Position numbers and translations under genes: made by a program. A stretch of 54,194 nucleotides of DNA from a virus, in IMG/VR virus record IMGVR_UViG_3300045988_120344, positions 1 through 54,194 of that record, one strand, 5' to 3'. Each line of letters starts with the position of its first letter. Position 1 is the stretch's first letter. Under the pieces are notes generated by a model that had not been told where the DNA came from, searched no databases, and worked only from the letters and a program-made list of their open reading frames with translations. This document shows, piece after piece, positions 26,854 through 51,181 of the stretch.

Positions 26854-27348
26854 TTAGTGTGTAGTACATATGAAAAACACATCCTGCTCCGCATAATCGT
26901 GAAAAAGCATTATAGCCAGGCTTCTAGTTGCCTCATTAGCTTTACGCTGGCAGGACCTTTCGCTCAGTCCTAGTTCTTCCCCGATCTCAGCATAGGTATA
27001 GTGCTCTATATAATGTTTTTTCAGTATTTTTTGCTCATCATCCGGCAGCCTGCCTAGCGAGCTTTCCATTTTTTCTAGATGAGTCTGCAAGCGCCTACGG
27101 TTTACCTGTAACGCTTTTACCTCCTGTTCTTGTAATGCTCGTACATGTGCTTGCTGTTCTGTACCGTTAAGCTCTGATACCCCTGAACTCGTACTAGGGC
27201 GGTAATCAACAGCACGTACTGAAACATCCGCTAACTCACGGCTAAGGTCTTGCATATCTAGCTCAATATTCCTGACTGCCTGCTGCCGGTAAGAGTAATT
27301 TTTTAAATAGTCCTTGGTTAACTTAATACAATCATTACTACGAAACAT
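26854..27348 (-). CDS. Sigma-70 region-4-like late transcription regulator
   Basis: 164 aa; C-terminal LPDDEQKILKKHYIEHYTYAEIGEELGLSERSCQRKANEATRSLA is a sigma region-4 HTH; last gene before the packaging module. Confidence 0.65.
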   Translation of the reverse strand: MFRSNDCIKLTKDYLKNYSYRQQAVRNIELDMQDLSRELADVSVRAVDYRPSTSSGVSELNGTEQQAHVRALQEQEVKALQVNRRRLQTHLEKMESSLGRLPDDEQKILKKHYIEHYTYAEIGEELGLSERSCQRKANEATRSLAIMLFHDYAEQDVFFICTTH

Positions 27349-27660: not shown

Positions 27661-27876
27661 TCAGTATTCACCTCCGATTGTCGTAGTCACAGTGACTCCG
27701 GTTTTAGGATCCCTAAATGTCACCGGCGTTTTATCCAGCTTAAATCCTGTTAACTTAACATCAGCACTCATCATCTTTACTAGCTGTGCTGCTCTTTTAT
27801 GTACCTTTCGCATAATGTTTTTCTCAGCTTCAAATGGCGTCACGTCTTTAACATGACTGCGATTAAACTTATCCAT
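27661..27876 (-). CDS. Hypothetical protein
   Basis: 71-aa ORF; ATG overlaps the stop of the upstream small ORF (TAATG). Confidence 0.55.
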   Translation of the reverse strand: MDKFNRSHVKDVTPFEAEKNIMRKVHKRAAQLVKMMSADVKLTGFKLDKTPVTFRDPKTGVTVTTTIGGEY

Positions 27877-28037
27877 TATTTTCCTCCATATTCTTCAATT
27901 CTGGCCTTTATCGCCGTTATCATTGTTTCCTGTGTCACCTTTTTACCCTGCAATGCCTTGATAGCAAAAAGCCTATCATTACCATTCCAAGCTGCGCCAT
28001 TCCAAGCTGCGCCATTTCCTTTTGAATCTTTTTCCAT
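27876..28037 (-). CDS. Hypothetical 53-aa protein (below the ORF-track cutoff) containing a 15-bp tandem duplication
   Basis: Hand translation MEKDSKGNGAAWNGAAWNGNDRLFAIKALQGKKVTQETMITAIKARIEEYGGK; the DNA ccattccaagctgcg is repeated twice. Confidence 0.5.
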   Translation of the reverse strand: MEKDSKGNGAAWNGAAWNGNDRLFAIKALQGKKVTQETMITAIKARIEEYGGK

Positions 28038-28046
28038 AATTTTCAC

Positions 28047-28424
28047 CTACTTACACATCGATATAGTGAACTCATTTATGAACTCATATAGATCAATTGT
28101 TTGCAGTGTCTGAAACTCTACATCTTCATAAAGGACTAAATGGGATTCGTCATTCAAACTAACAATCATTGCTTTTGTATAATATCCTTGCCCATCATTT
28201 CTGATAAATACACAATCTTGATGATTTTCAGCGAAATGTTTTAACTTAGTAAAAGTCATTTCGTCATAGTCTTTTAAAAATTTATCTAATGCTTTACCTC
28301 TATCATCTGTTGCAAATTTTTGTATATCTAAAAAATCTTTTTGTTTTTCTGTGAATCCTTTTTGCTCATTCGCACTTTTAACATACGCTTCTCTATTGCC
28401 GATAGCCCCTACATAAAAGAAGCA
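28047..28424 (-). pseudogene. C-terminal portion of the second pentapeptide-repeat gene, in the -1 frame (track ORF 28047-28259 is its ATG-delimited tail)
   Basis: The frame is open from 28424 (CFFYVGAIGNREAYVKS...) with no start codon until 28259; YVGAIGNR matches YIGAIGSR at the equivalent position in the intact paralogue. Confidence 0.6.
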
Positions 28425-28867
28425 TCACTTAAATTAACATATCGCAAATCAGCCTCCTGTAAATTAGCTCCCAATAACTTAGCACTATGTAATTTAGCAC
28501 AGTACAAATCTGCATTTTGCAAATTTGTATCCCGCAGGTCAGTACCTCGCAGGTCTGTACATTGCAAATCCGCATTTCGCAAATCCGCACATCGCAGGTC
28601 TGCACCTCGCAGGTCTGCACATTGCAAATAAACACATCGTAAATCAGCATATCGCAGGTCTGCACCTTGCAGGTCTGCACATTGCAAATAAGCATTTCGC
28701 AAATCCGCTTTTCGCAAATCCGCGCCCCTTAAATACGCGTTGTACAAATCAGCGCCTCGTAAATCGGCACCATGTAAATTGGCTCTCTTACCACCATTTT
28801 CACTATTTACCCACTTTTTGTGTTTTTCAAGGATTTCATCTAATTCCTCTTTAGATATTTTTCTCAT
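28409..28867 (-). CDS. Pentapeptide-repeat protein (paralogue 2; start at ATG 28867)
   Basis: A(D/N)L(R/Q)xA(D/N)L repeats throughout; GGAGGAGG RBS ahead of 28867; ends at a TAG just after a TTTT run. Confidence 0.8.
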   Translation of the reverse strand: MRKISKEELDEILEKHKKWVNSENGGKRANLHGADLRGADLYNAYLRGADLRKADLRNAYLQCADLQGADLRYADLRCVYLQCADLRGADLRCADLRNADLQCTDLRGTDLRDTNLQNADLYCAKLHSAKLLGANLQEADLRYVNLSDASFM

Positions 28868-29450
28868 TTTCCTTTTCCTCCTCCGCACTTTTTAGATATG
28901 CCTCTCGCATACTTTCAAACATTTTTATAGCGCTCAAATATTCTATTCTATACCGTTGATATTCTTCATTTTCACTGTCAGCTGGATAAACCTTGTCTAT
29001 TCTGGCTTTAAACTCGGCTAACGTGCCACCTTGGTAATCATTCCAACAACCACAGCGAATGTTGTCGTAATCTACGAAACATATCGTCTCTGCGCCTCTA
29101 CTACCGATAGCTCCTATATAAAGAAGCCACGGTCTTTTGGCGCCTTGCAAATCAGCACTGTATAAATCAACATTTCTTAAATTAGCACATCGCAAATCAA
29201 CACATCGCAAATCTGCATGTCGCAAATTGGCACCTCTTAAATCAACATTTCTTAAATTAGCACATCGCAAATCAACATGTCGCAAATTGGCACCGTACAA
29301 ATCTGCACCTTGCAAATTCGCACATTGCAAATCAGCACTGTATAAATCAGCAAATCGTAAATCAGCTTGTTCACCGCCTTCCTCGTCATTTAGCCACTTC
29401 TTATGCTTTTCTAAAATATCTTGTAATTCCTCATCTGTTATTGTTCTCAT
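28851..29450 (-). CDS. Pentapeptide-repeat protein (paralogue 1) with a C-terminal non-repeat domain
   Basis: 199 aa; about 20 pentapeptide units (ADLRFADLYSADLQCANLQGADLYGANLRH...); N-terminus ITDEELQDILEKHKKWLNDEEGG is shared with paralogue 2. Confidence 0.85.
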   Translation of the reverse strand: MRTITDEELQDILEKHKKWLNDEEGGEQADLRFADLYSADLQCANLQGADLYGANLRHVDLRCANLRNVDLRGANLRHADLRCVDLRCANLRNVDLYSADLQGAKRPWLLYIGAIGSRGAETICFVDYDNIRCGCWNDYQGGTLAEFKARIDKVYPADSENEEYQRYRIEYLSAIKMFESMREAYLKSAEEEKENEKNI

Positions 29451-29475: not shown

Positions 29476-29781
29476 TTACCCCTTATGTCCAGCCTTTAGC
29501 CGGCTTTCCCAGCGTTCCCACTTTGGTGAGTTCTCTACCGTGCTATGGTGCGGCAAACAACCAAGCATTCTCAGTATCATACACACGTCTATTGCTTCTT
29601 CTTTTAGCTGCTCTGTTGCTTCGTGCTCTGACTTTGGCGTGATGTTTGAACTGTACCCTTTTGCACGTATCAGTTTTAAGCTTGCTTGTTCCAGCTCTCC
29701 ACATTCTTCTGCCAGCTGTTCCAGCAAATCACGCTCCGTCAGGTGCTTGTGTACGTAATACATACTATCAATCCCACTCAT
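29476..29781 (-). CDS. MazG-like NTP pyrophosphohydrolase-like protein
   Basis: 101 aa; LEQLAEECGELEQASLKL ... LKEEAIDVCMILRMLG (EExxE...ExxD). Confidence 0.55.
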   Translation of the reverse strand: MSGIDSMYYVHKHLTERDLLEQLAEECGELEQASLKLIRAKGYSSNITPKSEHEATEQLKEEAIDVCMILRMLGCLPHHSTVENSPKWERWESRLKAGHKG

Positions 29782-42981: not shown

Positions 42982-43428
42982 ATGAGCCTACATAATACGG
43001 CATTTACAAAAAATTTAAGGCAATTGTTACACGAAAAAGACAAAACACAAAAAGAATTAGCCGCTTATGTATGTGTGTCTGCACCATCGGTTAATTCGTG
43101 GGTTAAAGGCACTAAAATGCCGCAATTAAGTAAAATCAAAAAGATAGCTTCTTTTTTTCATGTTCCTGTACAAGCGTTACTTTCTGAAGAAAATGAAAAA
43201 CTTGACAAACCACCGAATATTTCAGAAGTATCAGTCGTACCCGCCGATGCTAAATCTGAAAGCGGTCTGATGGTTGAACTATTTGCTGACCGTCCCGATG
43301 TTCTTGAGATAATCGACGGCAAAGTTTTTGGCGACAAGGAAAACAAAAAGCCTTTGTCGCCGGAAGCAAAGCTCCATATAAAAAATTCAGTTCTTTTCAC
43401 CCTCCGTGCTTGCGGTTATAACGTGTGA
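42982..43428 (+). CDS. CI-like repressor (XRE HTH plus a C-terminal domain)
   Basis: 148 aa; KTQKELAAYVCVSAPSVNSWVKGTKMP; first gene of the plus-strand lysogeny operon. Confidence 0.75.
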   Translation: MSLHNTAFTKNLRQLLHEKDKTQKELAAYVCVSAPSVNSWVKGTKMPQLSKIKKIASFFHVPVQALLSEENEKLDKPPNISEVSVVPADAKSESGLMVELFADRPDVLEIIDGKVFGDKENKKPLSPEAKLHIKNSVLFTLRACGYNV

Positions 43429-43555
43429 TTCAATCTGCTAACTAGCAGTTGAAAATACATTATAAAGGGGTGTTGCCACATGGAGAATGTCTACTACATA
43501 ATAATCGATGGTAGAATTGTCCGTATAGTCATTGCAGACTAAGGAGCAATACCAA

Positions 43556-43936
43556 TTGAAAAAACGAATTATAAATATAAATAAAACAGCATTAAAGACT
43601 TTCTTCATCTTCACGCTCATCTTTGTCGGAATGACCGGCTTCACGCTGCGGAATATCCCTGATTTGTCTGACTATCGCCCTGCATCCATCGTAAGCATCG
43701 CTGAACCGGCGGACATAGAATCGGACACAGAATATACGTGGGACAGCCACATTAAGTCAGCAACTAGCCTAGTCAAAACGACCGATTTTTTAAATGTACC
43801 AACATTATCGGCGATTGTACTTACAACGACTTTTGTACTGATTTTAATTAGTAAACAATTTTATCTCAAAAGTCACATTGAATATTGTGGTAAGAAGATG
43901 GTAAAAGCAATAATGCTGCAGTGGAGACCAAATTAA
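43556..43936 (+). CDS. Membrane protein (TTG start after AAGGAG; track ORF starts at 43532)
   Basis: Two hydrophobic segments (FFIFTLIFVGMTGF; LSAIVLTTTFVLILI). Confidence 0.55.
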   Translation: MKKRIININKTALKTFFIFTLIFVGMTGFTLRNIPDLSDYRPASIVSIAEPADIESDTEYTWDSHIKSATSLVKTTDFLNVPTLSAIVLTTTFVLILISKQFYLKSHIEYCGKKMVKAIMLQWRPN

Positions 43937-43966
43937 AATAAAATACAAGTAGGTGTTAATTGAATA

Positions 43967-45364
43967 ATGTCATGGTTACGAAACTTATTAGGGCTTACTA
44001 CCCCAGAAGAAAAAGAATTGCAAGCTATGCGAAAAGAAACAGCTCAACTGAAAGAAGAATCAAATCATATTATATACAATGCTAAAAAAAAAGCCGATAC
44101 CATCATATCAGAAGCAGGAATAAATGCTAAAAATATAATTGACGAAGCTACCGCAAGCATTGCTGAACGTAAACAAGATCTTGAACATCAAGTAAAGTCT
44201 CTAAAAGAAACACTCGATGTAAATAAAAACGGCCTCAAATCATTAGAGGACGAATTGCGTATAAAACAGGGCGCTCTTATTGAACTTGATGAAAAAGTCC
44301 TCTTACAAAATGTATCGCTTTATGAACCTATGTATGATTTTGTAAATTCAGACCGATACAAAGAAGAACTTGATAAAATTCGCAGCAATCAAAAAGCTTT
44401 AATAAAAAATGGATCTGCCATTTCAAAAACACAAACTTGGGTAGTAAATGGAAGTACTGCTGAAGGTAAAAAGATGGTGCGCGACATTTCAAAACTACTT
44501 CTTCGTGCTTTTAACGGCGAATGTGAACATTTGACTGCTAAAGTAAAGTATAATAATTTCGACGCATACAAAAAACGTATTGAATCTGCAAAAGAAGCCA
44601 TAGACAAACTAGGACGATGCATGAGCATTAGCATCAATTATGAATATTTTGATTTAAAAATAAAAGAACTTCATCTTGCTTTTGAGTATAAGCAGATGAA
44701 GCAAAAAGAAAAAGAAGAACAGCGTATGCTACGGGAGCAGCTGCGTGAAGAAGCCCGGCTGAAAAAAGAAATTGAAGAAGCTCGCAGGAAGATCAAAAAA
44801 GAACAGACACATTACAAAAATGCTATCTCTGCAATGAAGGAAAAAATAGCCAGCGCAAAGACTTCTGATGATAAGGAAGTTTTTGTGCAAAAACTAAGTG
44901 AGCTTGAAGAACAGGCGGAGCAGGTAGAAAAGCATATTGCTGATATAGACTACCGCGAAAGCAATCAAAAAGCTGGCTATGTCTACGTTATATCAAATAT
45001 CGGTTCTTTTGGCGAAGGTGTTTATAAGATAGGCATGACGCGCAGACTGGACCCGATGGATAGAGTACGCGAACTTGGAGACGCCTCGGTACCCTTCGGT
45101 TTCGATATTCACGCTATGATTTTCAGCGACAACGCTCCCAAGTTGGAAGCAGCTATCCACAAGGCCTTTGAGAACAGAAAAGTAAATATGGTAAATACAA
45201 GGCGGGAATTTTTTAGAGTTTCGCTTGATGAGATAAAAGATACTATAAATAAAAATTTTGATGGCAGTGTAGATTTTATCGAAACCGCGGATGCTGAACA
45301 GTTCCGAGAAAGCGAAAAACTTTGGCAACAGATGAACGCCCATACCAAAAAGGAGGGAGCTTGA
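43967..45364 (+). CDS. DUF4041-like coiled-coil protein with a C-terminal T5orf172 (MUG113, GIY-YIG-related) domain
   Basis: 465 aa; C-terminal GYVYVISNIGSFGEGVYKIGMTRRLDPMDRVRELGDASVPFGFDIHAMIFSDNAPKLEAAIHKAFENRKVN...REFF is the T5orf172 signature. Confidence 0.7.
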   Translation: MSWLRNLLGLTTPEEKELQAMRKETAQLKEESNHIIYNAKKKADTIISEAGINAKNIIDEATASIAERKQDLEHQVKSLKETLDVNKNGLKSLEDELRIKQGALIELDEKVLLQNVSLYEPMYDFVNSDRYKEELDKIRSNQKALIKNGSAISKTQTWVVNGSTAEGKKMVRDISKLLLRAFNGECEHLTAKVKYNNFDAYKKRIESAKEAIDKLGRCMSISINYEYFDLKIKELHLAFEYKQMKQKEKEEQRMLREQLREEARLKKEIEEARRKIKKEQTHYKNAISAMKEKIASAKTSDDKEVFVQKLSELEEQAEQVEKHIADIDYRESNQKAGYVYVISNIGSFGEGVYKIGMTRRLDPMDRVRELGDASVPFGFDIHAMIFSDNAPKLEAAIHKAFENRKVNMVNTRREFFRVSLDEIKDTINKNFDGSVDFIETADAEQFRESEKLWQQMNAHTKKEGA

Positions 45365-45654
45365 TGTTCTGTAAAAGTTGTGGAAAAGAACTGCCTAATG
45401 ATGCTAAGTTCTGCCTTAACTGTGGAGAAGCTACCGTCTCGATAATGAATAGCGTAGACAAGTCAATGCCTAATTGCCCCCAATGCCATTCTTACAATAT
45501 TACTATAAACAAGAGAGGCTTTGCCTTGGTTAGAGGCATTGTTTTGGGTTTATTTACAGGTGGTATCGGCTTATTGGCTGGATTCTTCGGAATGAATAAG
45601 TTGGTAGGAAAATGCCTTGACTGCGGATATAAGTGGGACATTTTGAATAATTAA
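45364..45654 (+). CDS. Zinc-ribbon membrane protein (ATG overlaps the upstream stop, TGATG)
   Basis: MFCKSCGKELPNDAKFCLNCG..., CPQCHS, TM GIVLGLFTGGIGLLAGFFG, CLDCGYKW. Confidence 0.65.
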   Translation: MFCKSCGKELPNDAKFCLNCGEATVSIMNSVDKSMPNCPQCHSYNITINKRGFALVRGIVLGLFTGGIGLLAGFFGMNKLVGKCLDCGYKWDILNN

Positions 45655-45664
45655 TAATCATCTA

Positions 45665-45693
45665 AAGGTGTATCACAAAAGATACACCTTTTC
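45665..45693 (+). terminator. Rho-independent terminator
   Basis: AAGGTGTATC-acaaaa-GATACACCTT followed by TTC. Confidence 0.65.
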
Positions 45694-45746
45694 AAATACT
45701 CAAATTTGCTATATACGAATAAAAAATTGATAGGAGTGACGCTTAA

Positions 45747-46952
45747 ATGGCCGTACGAACTAGAAAACGCGGTAAAACATGGAGTTATAGTTTTGACATT
45801 GAGCCCGGTCCTGACGGTAAACGCCGTATGAAAGAAAAAGGCGGTTTCAGCTCAAAAGAGGAAGCGTTTACTGCTGGTGCAGCTGCTTATACCGATTGGA
45901 AAAACGGTAATATCGGGTTGACTAGTGACAAGATACTTTTACGGGATTATCTGGAAAAATGGTTTAACCTTCATCAAAAGGACTTAAAGCCAAACTCTGT
46001 CAAAACCTATAATACGGCTATAGAAAACATTAACCGGTATTTAAGTAATATCATTTTGCAAGATTTAAAACCACGTGACATCGACCTGCTTTTCCGCAAA
46101 CTTTGTGACGGTGAAAATAAATCGTATCGTACAATTCAAACTATAAAAACCGTTCTGAGTACGGCCCTTGCTTATGCTGTATATCCGTTGGAGCTTATAA
46201 GCTATAATGCCAGTACCGCTATAAAAATCCCTAAACGGGCTAAACGGCAGGTAGTAAAGCGCTATGTCATAACCAGTAGCGACCTTGAACACCTGCTGAC
46301 TTTGTACCCGTTCGGTACGGATTACCATATCCCGATAGTTTTGGCTTACTATACGGGTTTAAGACTAGGAGAGCTGCTAGGCCTTACCTGGGATAATATA
46401 GATTTAGTCACAGGACAGGTTGATATCGTAAAGCAGCTTACTTATATACCCAGGCAGGGATTTTGCTTTAGGTCATTAAAAACTGATACTAGCAGACGTT
46501 CAATTATGCTTGATACTATAACTATAGCTATTCTGCGCAAATGGCTAAACCTGCAAAAGCAGCGCGAATTAAAAGCCGGTTCATCTTATGTATGCATTTT
46601 TACTAATGAAAACGACTTTATAATACAGAGCTCTAAACGAATAATACAACCGGATAACTACAAACGGCTAAAAATGGTGTGTACCCGTCTTGACGGTGCC
46701 TTAGTTAGCCGTGACTCCTTTTCCCAGACGTTACGCAAAAACGGATTTAACAGCCACTCTTTTAGACATACCCATGCTACCCGTTTAATCGAAAACATGG
46801 CGTCACCGAAAAGTGTGGCCGCAAGGCTAGGTCACAAGTCAACAACCATTACCGAAAATCTTTACACGCATAATACAGATTTAATGCAAAAGCAGGTTGC
46901 TGACATCACTGAACATTTACACGAAAAAGATGTAGACAAGCCTGCTTTGTAG
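45747..46952 (+). CDS. int: Tyrosine recombinase/phage integrase
   Basis: 401 aa; YTGLRLGELLGLTWDNID, HSFRHTHATRL, LGHKSTTITENLYTH (R..HxxR..Y catalytic pattern). Confidence 0.9.
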   Translation: MAVRTRKRGKTWSYSFDIEPGPDGKRRMKEKGGFSSKEEAFTAGAAAYTDWKNGNIGLTSDKILLRDYLEKWFNLHQKDLKPNSVKTYNTAIENINRYLSNIILQDLKPRDIDLLFRKLCDGENKSYRTIQTIKTVLSTALAYAVYPLELISYNASTAIKIPKRAKRQVVKRYVITSSDLEHLLTLYPFGTDYHIPIVLAYYTGLRLGELLGLTWDNIDLVTGQVDIVKQLTYIPRQGFCFRSLKTDTSRRSIMLDTITIAILRKWLNLQKQRELKAGSSYVCIFTNENDFIIQSSKRIIQPDNYKRLKMVCTRLDGALVSRDSFSQTLRKNGFNSHSFRHTHATRLIENMASPKSVAARLGHKSTTITENLYTHNTDLMQKQVADITEHLHEKDVDKPAL

Positions 46953-49963: not shown

Positions 49964-51181
49964 TTATTCTTCTGGTGGTAGATTGTTTAAGTATTCTTTG
50001 ACTTTCCCAAAGTAAATTCGCAGAAACTTGTTGGCTCCAGCTGTCATGTAGACGTAGTAAGGCTTGCCCTCATCGCGTTTCTTCGCCATGAATCTATATA
50101 CTGGGTCATCCTCTGGCTGGTTTTTAATCAGCACTTCCATTATAAGGAACAAAGTCCTTCTTAGATAAGGTGAGCCGTGCTTGCTGGTGTGAACGCTTTT
50201 CTGGGCATAGTCGCCGGATTCATTAACACCTGGGTCTACGCCTGCAAAGGCTGTCAGCTGGCTGCGCTTGGTGAATTTATGCACATCGCCAATCTCGGCA
50301 ATAAGCTGCGGGCCAAGAGTCGTTCCTACGCCGAACATGGACATCACAACAGGGTATTCAGGCAATTGTGAGGCTAAGCTGTCCATCTGCTGACGAAGTT
50401 CCTCCACGGCTTTGGAAATGGCATTGAGCTGTGTTACAGCCTGCTGGACAAAAAGTTTGGTCATGTCATCCTTGGCTAGAATGGGAATCAGCTCTTTTGA
50501 GGCATTATAGATTTCAGCAGGTTTGTCCGGCTGGAAATTGTAGCCGTGCTTTTTGCACCATTTCTGATATTTTTCCGTAAAGGATTTGAGGCTGAGGTTA
50601 CAGACACAATCCACATGCCAAAATTTTTCAATGAAGTCTACCCATTTCTCGCTGCCATCAGGCCGCTTGGGGCTGGTAAAGAATTTATTGGCTCCTGGAT
50701 AGGTTTCATCCATCAGGGCTATAAGGTTATTTTTGTAAGCCGTCTGCTGCTTCTGGTAGAAGCTCATCTGACGGTTCATGGTTTTAAGCTGTGTACGTAT
50801 ATTATCCATAGCTGTATATTGACGCAGCATATACCATTTGTCAAGGGCAAAGCGGCCAATCTTCCTGGCATCTGCCTTGTCGGTTTTGACACGGCGCAGG
50901 GAGTTGTTGTCGAAGTCCTTGATTAGCTTGGGATTCACGGCGCTGACGAACAGTCCCGCGCCAGAAAGCCAGCGTACCACGGGTTCGTAATAACGGCCTG
51001 TGTGTTCCAAAACAATGCGGCATTCGCCGCCTAACGTATTTAAATAGTTTACGAGGTCGTTCATGCCGCTCTTGGTGTGACGTACCTCAAAAGGTTTGGC
51101 TACTGTCTTGCCTAGAGGCTCTAACACGGCTACCGTGCTCCTGCATTTCGAGACATCGATTCCTACTGCGTACATGTGCAT
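49964..51181 (-). CDS. IS110-family (DEDD) transposase/recombinase
   Basis: 405 aa; N-terminal YAVGIDVSKCRSTVAVL; C-terminal FGVGTTLGPQLIAEIGDVHKFTKRSQLTAFAGVDPGVNESGDY (Transposase_20 pattern). Confidence 0.9.
   Translation of the reverse strand: MHMYAVGIDVSKCRSTVAVLEPLGKTVAKPFEVRHTKSGMNDLVNYLNTLGGECRIVLEHTGRYYEPVVRWLSGAGLFVSAVNPKLIKDFDNNSLRRVKTDKADARKIGRFALDKWYMLRQYTAMDNIRTQLKTMNRQMSFYQKQQTAYKNNLIALMDETYPGANKFFTSPKRPDGSEKWVDFIEKFWHVDCVCNLSLKSFTEKYQKWCKKHGYNFQPDKPAEIYNASKELIPILAKDDMTKLFVQQAVTQLNAISKAVEELRQQMDSLASQLPEYPVVMSMFGVGTTLGPQLIAEIGDVHKFTKRSQLTAFAGVDPGVNESGDYAQKSVHTSKHGSPYLRRTLFLIMEVLIKNQPEDDPVYRFMAKKRDEGKPYYVYMTAGANKFLRIYFGKVKEYLNNLPPEE

Follow-up and report, generated by a model that had tools for sequence, protein, structure and literature searches.

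The locus between positions 28,047 and 29,450 of a 54,194-nucleotide (nt) viral sequence (IMG/VR record IMGVR_UViG_3300045988_120344, positions 1 to 54,194; the whole stretch is called the window here) raises the question of what a break in the reading frame means when it falls at the end of an otherwise flawless repeat gene. The window represents a temperate siphovirus-type prophage, and the locus carries two tandem genes for pentapeptide-repeat proteins (PRPs), named PRP1 and PRP2. A first-pass annotation, made from the letters alone, had described these paralogues with a common N-terminus in the early region of a phage and had noticed that PRP2 stops where the -1 frame opens; as possible explanations it gave a 1-nt indel in a TTTT run (sequencing error or real pseudogenisation), a -1 slip on U-UUU or two independent products. 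The two paralogues, their common N-terminus and their early or accessory position in a temperate phage were confirmed by direct reading and by the family model PF00805. Our analysis led to a different view of the frame break itself. PRP1 belongs, as an intact protein, to a family of phage PRPs whose C-terminal domain (C-domain) is uncharacterised, and PRP2 is a 3'-truncated paralogue, joined by deletions to the relic of another gene. We estimate with a probability of roughly 85% that the break is the scar of gene decay by deletions in a recombination-prone PRP array. The features on which the argument is built are the following.

28851..29450, minus strand: PRP1, 199 amino acids (aa), with an N-terminal cap (N-cap) helix, 15 pentapeptides and a conserved C-domain (reading of the open reading frame, ORF).
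28854..29138, minus strand: C-domain of PRP1 (KRPW...IGSR...CGCW...GGTLAEFK...EYLSAIKMFESMREAYLKS), the family-defining module.
28409..28867, minus strand: PRP2, 152 aa; an N-cap helix is followed by 24 pentapeptides without interruption, up to ...LSDASFM-TAG (direct reading).
28415..28436, minus strand: frame-disrupting junction where the repeat frame (A) gives way to the relic frame (B), containing TTTT and an in-frame TGA (MAFFT alignment with 12 intact paralogues).
28392..28424, minus strand: stub of the start of a PRP C-domain (CFFYVGAIGNR) in frame B (positions 9-13 of the C-domain hidden Markov model, HMM).
28374..28391, minus strand: stub of the end of a PRP C-domain (EAYVKS; MREAYLKS in PRP1), from HMM and DNA comparison.
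28047..28373, minus strand: relic with codons 27-134 and the stop of a separate gene (blastn and protein homologues).
28047..28259, minus strand: mechanical 70-aa ORF inside the relic, starting from the internal Met65 of a 134-aa protein.

Intact family members begin with an N-cap helix, continue with pentapeptide coils whose number varies, and end in a conserved C-domain of about 90 aa with the consensus RxW...IGSR...CGCW...GGTLxEFK...EYLSAIKMFExMRxAY. Twenty-eight C-domain columns were invariant in 22 aligned intact members (PRP1 and 21 homologues), including R106-x-W108, I115-G-S-R118, C133-G-C135, G141-G-T-L-x-E-F-K148, E170-Y-L-x-A-I and R182-x-x-Y185. When 1.84 billion representatives were searched exhaustively with phmmer, the domain was found in 84 representative clusters at 50% identity, nearly always as the C-terminal end of the protein and with PF00805 upstream in 64 of the 84. 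Proteins of this family occur in metagenomes, at least some of which are from the human gut. There is no Pfam model for the C-domain, and the PDB held no counterpart either by sequence or by fold (best E=3.5); the PRP1 domain matched phrog_31567 (E=5e-12), to which no function is assigned in PHROG. RnlB_antitoxin was considered as a relative and disregarded, being a single weak match in 1 of the 84 members.

Both proteins of the window exceed the PF00805 cut-off of 20.2 bits (PRP1: E=2e-21, 75.6 bits; PRP2: E=5e-45, 150.9 bits), and their N-termini have the pattern MR(T/K)I(T/S)xEELxxILEKHKKW(L/V)N in common. PRP1 is preceded by a GGAGG Shine-Dalgarno sequence and its exact protein sequence was present on 41 contigs. 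PRP2 begins at ATG 28867 behind a strong GGAGGAGG Shine-Dalgarno sequence, overlaps the 3' end of PRP1 by 17 nt, and closes with GAT GCT TCT TTT ATG TAG, the TAG standing at 28411-28409; its exact 152-aa sequence was not among the indexed proteins. The A(D/N)LXX register is unbroken in both, with 15 repeats in PRP1 and 24 in PRP2, which corrects the first-pass estimate of about 20 units. What separates the two genes is the C-domain: when the HMM was run against all three frames of 28000-28900, only positions 9-13 and 78-85 were recovered, and positions 14-77 were absent.

These fragments lie in the -1 frame (frame B), where the first-pass annotation had correctly read the geometry: the TAG follows directly after TCT-TTT-ATG, and the -1 frame runs on into the 70-aa ORF. 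Frame B opens at 28424, after a TGA at 28427-28425, and reads CFFYVGAIGNREAYVKSANEQKGF... with no stop until 28049-28047 (CFFYVGAIGNREAYV... in the part read down to 28047). The T-run occupies 28418-28415. The conserved Y(I/V)GAIG(S/N)R motif had been taken to span the break, and its homology is genuine, since the DNA behind YVGAIGNR in frame B and behind YIGAIGSR in PRP1 is identical at 20 of 25 bases. However, only 17 codons of the -1 frame (28424-28374, CFFYVGAIGNREAYVKS) are PRP-derived. In the C-domain HMM, GAIGN corresponds to positions 9-13 and REAYVKSA to 78-85, so the 64 positions between them (14-77) are gone in frame. The two deletion junctions read AAT AGA / GAA GCG TAT and AAA AGT / GCG AAT GAG CAA AAA GGA, and each of them stands at short microhomologies with intact sequences (GAG.GCA and GCG.A.GAG.AAAA, respectively).

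The frame-disrupting junction itself was aligned by MAFFT with the 12 intact paralogues. Between the anchors, ATATGTTAA upstream in the repeat frame and TG(G/C) TTx xTT TAT ... GCT ATC GG downstream in the relic frame, PRP2 has a net gain of 2 nt within 28433-28425 (9 nt, TTTAAGTGA, versus 7). The ancestral K-R-(P/R)-W-F-V-Y has become K-TGA-C-F-F-Y in the relic frame; the invariant RxW is destroyed, the Arg being changed, the next codon being a stop and the Trp being replaced by Cys. When PRP2 was compared with PRP1 alone, one extra T appeared in the run instead (CTT CTT TAT versus CTT CTT T TAT). A one-base insertion in the T-run as the sole lesion was nevertheless rejected, because the 13-sequence alignment places the net +2 nt slightly upstream and shows the in-frame TGA. 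Pseudogenisation came closest among the three explanations first offered; the lesion is not clearly the T-run. Under either alignment RxW is encoded in no frame and, with 64 of about 90 C-domain positions gone as well, neither a slip nor an added T would recreate a family-like protein. A 10-bp inverted repeat (AUGCUUCUUU / AGAGAAGCGU; 28385-28425, minus strand) flanks the T-run and the first deletion junction. It might have promoted rearrangement at the DNA level; as an RNA structure it was not significant (z=-0.97).

The larger part of the -1 frame, 108 codons from 28373 to 28050, has no relation to PRPs. A search of 5.8 billion proteins with the -1-frame product (122 residues) gave 19 matches, none of which has pentapeptide repeats. 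Fifteen of them (P0001-P0015) are full-length, stand-alone proteins of 133-140 aa without PF00805, and they possess a conserved N-terminus of their own (MSNDVKAIFNKQKREENIAKLEKYIQ, continuing as ANEQKGFTEKQ...). At the DNA level, blastn of the window against six related loci showed identity to the 134-140-aa gene starting at 28370 in L016 and at 28373 in each of the other five (98.3% in L005, 97.5% in L014/L015, 98.6% in L013 and 86-87% in L010 and L016). Position 28373 corresponds to codon 27 (Ala27) of this gene, and consequently its start codon, its Shine-Dalgarno sequence and its first 26 codons are missing from the window. Neither Pfam, PHROG, NCBIfam, PADLOC nor the PDB gave a match for the 134-aa protein.

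The position of this gene in related phages is equally informative. In the eight loci that carry both (L005, L006, L008, L010, L011, L014-L016), it lies about 0.4-2 kb downstream of intact PRPs which have their own C-domain. The order is 101-aa gene, PRP190, PRP245/251, 50-aa gene, 79-aa gene and 134-aa gene in L005/L006/L008, and three PRPs, four small genes and the 134-aa gene in L010/L011; its loci have one PRP in L014/L015 and four in L016. The first-pass annotation had treated PRP2 and the downstream ORF as possible halves of one gene, had proposed a comparison with related phages for a fused gene, and had named consistently separate genes as the outcome that would speak against it. Separate genes were found in all loci with both, and all 15 full-length homologues stand alone; the idea of one split gene was abandoned. 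The gene is also dispensable, as it is absent from L017 and L018 and in L013 (105-527) a 140-aa version with a complete 5' end carries a CAA-to-TAA nonsense mutation (EKQ to EK-stop), which is an independent inactivation of the same gene.

Given these data, it could still be asked whether the frame break exists in the phage at all. If the true genome had five T and the assembly four, PRP2 would be a continuous 273-aa gene, and one added T would indeed join frames A and B. We regard such a sequencing or assembly error as the least probable of the explanations, close to negligible. Over 831 nt (28870 to 28040) the window does not differ at any base from ERZ2663290, ERZ27229629, ERZ2664308 and ERZ2663351, which derive from four independent ENA samples and, judging by their contig names (NODE_ and k119_), from two assemblers. 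Homopolymers as short as 4 nt are not prone to errors, and the repaired protein would still be unlike any family member. Furthermore, the same 152-aa and 70-aa gene calls were present in 23 of the 23 contigs that were read for the 70-aa ORF. The PRP2 allele is no artefact, and it has become fixed in a lineage that is widespread.

A real allele might be decoded by recoding. Programmed -1 ribosomal frameshifting on U_UUU (28418-28415) would yield, besides the 152-aa product, a 273-aa PRP2 fusion with 108 downstream residues, containing the trans-frame peptide ...LSDASFYVGAIGNR... and recognisable by the diagnostic fusion peptide DASFYVGAIGNR. Several features are compatible with this idea: the -1 frame is open from 3 codons ahead of the slip point to 28047, a slip by -1 would still let tRNA-Phe pair with UUU, the reading frame is kept across the two internal junctions, and fixation of the allele is seen in many samples. 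The arrangement also resembles the -1 frameshift sites of phages, such as that of the tail assembly chaperones G/GT, in having two overlapping frames with the downstream one open just before the upstream stop. Unlike at those sites, however, there is neither a conserved overlap nor an X_XXY_YYZ heptamer: the 0-frame reads UCU UUU AUG UAG with only a U_UUU tetramer, and the downstream frame is the relic of another gene. The sole local hairpin contains the slip site instead of lying 5-9 nt downstream of it, and it is not significant (z=-0.97; 30 of 200 shuffled sequences fold as well). No fusion or overlap was present in any homologue or related locus when the 5.8 billion proteins were searched with the downstream part and with PRP2, and the product would be a chimera without RxW and 64 C-domain positions. 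We consider a programmed -1 slip very improbable. A four-T run is also too short for transcriptional slippage.

The third possibility is that two products are made independently, namely the 152-aa PRP2 and a separately started 70-aa protein in which the function of the 134-aa protein's C-terminal half is kept. The 70-aa ORF is intact, its residues are 92% identical to the full-length homologues, and its exact sequence occurs on 60 contigs (it is listed in 73 blocks of the collection). Such a degree of identity is, on the other hand, what a recent relic is expected to have, and the gene from which it comes can be lost. No Shine-Dalgarno sequence was found in the 22 nt upstream of ATG 28259 (ATTTTTAAAAGACTATGACGAA), whereas such a signal precedes PRP1, PRP2, every neighbouring gene and the 134-aa genes that are intact; frame B offers no start codon upstream of 28259. 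A functional 70-aa product is therefore unlikely in our opinion.

Gene decay accounts for the locus by three lesions in PRP2 that fall within 60 nt; the cap and 24 perfect repeats are kept. The first is the frame-disrupting junction at 28436-28415, by which RxW was destroyed; the second, the in-frame loss of 64 C-domain positions (IGNR/EAY); and the third, the junction KS/A (28374/28373), by which the tail of a PRP was connected to codon 27 of the unrelated downstream gene. The deletions probably arose by illegitimate or microhomology-mediated recombination. The present output of the locus would be at most the 152-aa PRP2, consisting of the cap and the beta-helix, translated from its strong Shine-Dalgarno sequence with a start coupled to the PRP1 stop, and the 360 nt from 28408 to 28047 would be an untranslated relic.

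The behaviour of the array in other phages was compared with this scheme. Two DNA tandem repeats were detected in the window by TRF.

29148..29310, minus strand: DNA tandem repeat in PRP1, 75-nt period, 2.2 copies.
28497..28716, minus strand: DNA tandem repeat in PRP2, 60-nt period (one beta-helix coil), 3.7 copies, 81% matches.

The coil-number alleles of relatives have their substrate in this 75-nt repeat of PRP1. Among PRP1 alleles with at least 90% identity, length varies by entire coils, the forms being of 199 aa, 179 aa, a second and distinct 179-aa form (179') and 174 aa (L015); these alleles were taken from the window (28851-29450), L015 (2155-2679), L018 (4001-4540), P0247 and P0249. 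Alleles differing by whole coils, together with the 60- and 75-nt repeats, indicate that repeat number changes faster than point substitutions accumulate. PRP copy number varies as well, from one (L014, L015, L018) through two (L005) and three (L010, L017) to four (L016). In L015 and L018, PRP1 is followed directly by other genes, without PRP2. L017 has three intact PRPs, and the one of 156 aa has the first 20 residues of PRP2 and retains the C-domain. Rearranged forms were also recovered: a PRP ORF of L016 (2860-3642) begins with the leftover tail of a preceding C-domain (MEYLSAIKLFEGMREVYLKS...), and P0159 (208 aa) is a chimera in which the N-terminus is an SSB OB-fold, joined to a few pentapeptides and to the C-domain. 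The truncation of PRP2 fits this array-wide pattern of decay and chimerism.

Several points weigh against simple decay and should be considered together. Both deletion junctions keep frame B open, which would happen by chance in about 1 of 9 cases, and the surviving long frame could be that of a fusion ORF that was once selected. The flawless 24 repeats and the fixation of the allele in a widespread lineage may mean that the truncated PRP2 is still useful. The position of the frameshift (28433-28425 or the T-run) depends on the alignment, the pairwise and multiple alignments being in disagreement. Additionally, no pre-deletion or fused ancestor of PRP2 was found among the 5.8 billion proteins, where the best matches were 52-68% identical, and for this reason the order and number of the deletion events are deduced rather than observed.

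The surroundings of the locus are those of a temperate phage. The plus strand carries a Cro/CI-type repressor (42982-43428), a T5orf172/DUF4041 protein and a tyrosine integrase (45747-46952). The lysogeny module as a whole spans 42982-46952 (plus strand) and comprises the helix-turn-helix repressor, a 134-aa gene of unknown function, the DUF4041/T5orf172 protein (465 aa) and the integrase. An IS110-family transposase (49964-51181, minus strand) lies about 3 kb past the integrase, and no tRNA gene was found anywhere in the window. The minus strand carries antirepressor-like genes, a replication module with RecT and DnaB_2 (gene calls of the identical contig L001) and both PRP genes; next after the PRPs come a gene resembling late regulators with a sigma-70 region 4 (26854-27348) and then the small and large terminase subunits and an SPP1-type portal (gene calls of L001). 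Standing between the replication module and the late-regulator and terminase genes, the PRP genes close the early or accessory region.

The genes adjacent to the array were also inspected. Directly upstream of PRP1 is a 101-aa gene (29476-29781, minus strand) that matches PHROGs of MazG-like nucleoside triphosphate pyrophosphohydrolases (phrog_4856, E=1e-8), and a 101-aa MazG-like gene stands ahead of the PRP array in L005/L006/L008, L015 and L018 as in the window. The small gene just downstream (27876-28046, minus strand; MEKDSKGNGAAWNGAAWNGNDRLF...) contains a 15-nt tandem duplication by which NGAAW is encoded twice, and its homologue in L016 has this unit once (ENGAAWNNNDRLF). In related phages (L005 1-1648; L008 1-1648; L010 1-2140) the array closely follows a C5 DNA methylase gene into which an intein is inserted (Hint and Intein_splicing matches), with a second methylase fragment in the same upstream neighbourhood and a gene of the 3'-phosphoadenosine 5'-phosphosulfate (PAPS) reductase family in L010/L011. 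This DNA-modification neighbourhood is absent from the window at the PRP position. Searches for relatives elsewhere were less productive. In the GTDB species genomes neither the 134-aa protein nor the aligned PRP family gave a match, and a tblastn search of the phage GenBank collection with the downstream part was negative as well. A DNA search of the same collection returned only weak repeat-level matches to PRP genes of Listeria and Staphylococcus phages.

The first-pass annotation had assigned both proteins to the right-handed quadrilateral beta-helix and had suggested that such DNA mimics might inhibit host enzymes such as gyrase, restriction enzymes or other defence nucleases. Modelling supported this fold for PRP1. 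In the AlphaFold2 model of PRP1 (predicted local distance difference test, pLDDT, 81) the N-cap helix is predicted at residues 6-20, pLDDT is 94-98 over residues 1-70 and above 94 over the beta-helix, and the predicted C-domain comprises, besides a small beta element, two helices, one of them short and the other of about 36 residues. Foldseek matched the model to 4yei, 2j8i, 2f3l, 2bm5 and 2xtw, in each case through the beta-helix only (Np275, Rfr, MfpA, QnrB1, AlbG). For PRP2 the same fold may be assumed from its repeats.

PRP1 and PRP2 resemble the PF00805 proteins Np275/Np276, Rfr32 and HetL in their uninterrupted A(D/N)LXX repeats and in the predicted four-sided beta-helix; against synthetic and cyanobacterial PRPs the PRP1 model gave Foldseek E values of 1e-6 or better and a root-mean-square deviation of 0.5-1.5 A over 75-87 columns. 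Unlike these proteins, PRP1 has the N-cap helix (ILEKHKKWL) and, in addition, the C-domain (about 90 aa), the latter having been lost from PRP2. With Qnr, MfpA, AlbG and McbG the fold class is common. Qnr and MfpA dimerise via C-terminal helices, and in Qnr loops A and B interrupt the beta-helix (PMC10886550). The long C-terminal helix predicted for PRP1 could dimerise in a similar manner, but no loop breaks the repeats of PRP1 or PRP2. The NCBIfam Qnr/MfpA models scored both proteins at 18-55 bits, far below cut-offs of 240-500; with the Qnr equivalog (240) and MfpA (360) models, PRP1 reached 24.9 and 28 bits and PRP2 45.2 and 41.6 bits, respectively. A charge count of the sequences gave net charges of -1 and -3 for the repeat regions of PRP1 and PRP2, with D and R alternating; by this count the repeats seem near-neutral rather than acidic, in contrast to those of the topoisomerase-protecting PRPs. 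The C-domain is different as well. We know of no link between the present PRPs and gyrase. Regarding defence systems, PADLOC models did not match PRP1, PRP2 or their homologues. McbG and QnrB did not inhibit BREX (PMC7261183), and therefore the PRP fold or DNA mimicry alone is no proof of anti-defence activity.

Other phage proteins, all uncharacterised, are similar in overall plan. The groups phrog_7713, phrog_923 and phrog_31567, the PRPs with DUF5758 (PF19062), Listeria phage B025 gp51 and Staphylococcus phage Twort ORF044 have the same combination of N-cap and PRP and are located in phage early regions, and BFVD contains many phage proteins of this type. The PRP genes of Listeria and Staphylococcus phages are those with the weak DNA similarity mentioned above. 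Three alternative C-terminal modules are carried by the N-cap/PRP scaffold: the CGCW/GGTLAEFK domain, DUF5758 (PF19062) and a DYSCWPLWCG-type domain. DUF5758/PF19062 or the unmodelled DYSCWPLWCG...FHRVDECG domain follows the N-cap and PRP in P0020, P0022 and P0032 and in P0048, P0126 and P0138. This suggests a modular superfamily of PRP-led proteins. A literature search yielded no study of what a phage-encoded PRP does. To our knowledge, phage PRPs are common and entirely uncharacterised.

With regard to function, we suppose with low confidence that PRP1 and its relatives are probably rod-shaped binders of host proteins in early infection, and with similarly low confidence that these rods are probably dimerised or anchored via the helical C-domain. 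The rapid change of coil number and copy number suggests diversifying selection. A more far-reaching idea, which we put forward as tentative and more doubtful than convincing, is that the CGCW/GGTLAEFK PRPs are a hypervariable phage module under arms-race selection, serving counter-defence, superinfection exclusion or host take-over; it is raised because of the 1-4 tandem copies, the coil-number alleles at 90% identity or more, and the frequent chimeras and truncations. If it were true, the beta-helix would be a length-tunable decoy or spacer and the C-domain an anchor or effector, and the truncated PRP2 might be a tolerated or selected rod-only variant instead of junk.

For annotation, the locus is neither a recoding site nor a frameshifted full-length gene, and PRP2 should be described as a truncated PRP with the remnant of a gene behind it. 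Beyond this single case, the comparison reveals a small phage PRP family with very fast turnover and with a conserved C-domain that has neither a Pfam model nor a structural relative, and the natural length variation of the family would offer a convenient entry point to the binding partners of PRPs.

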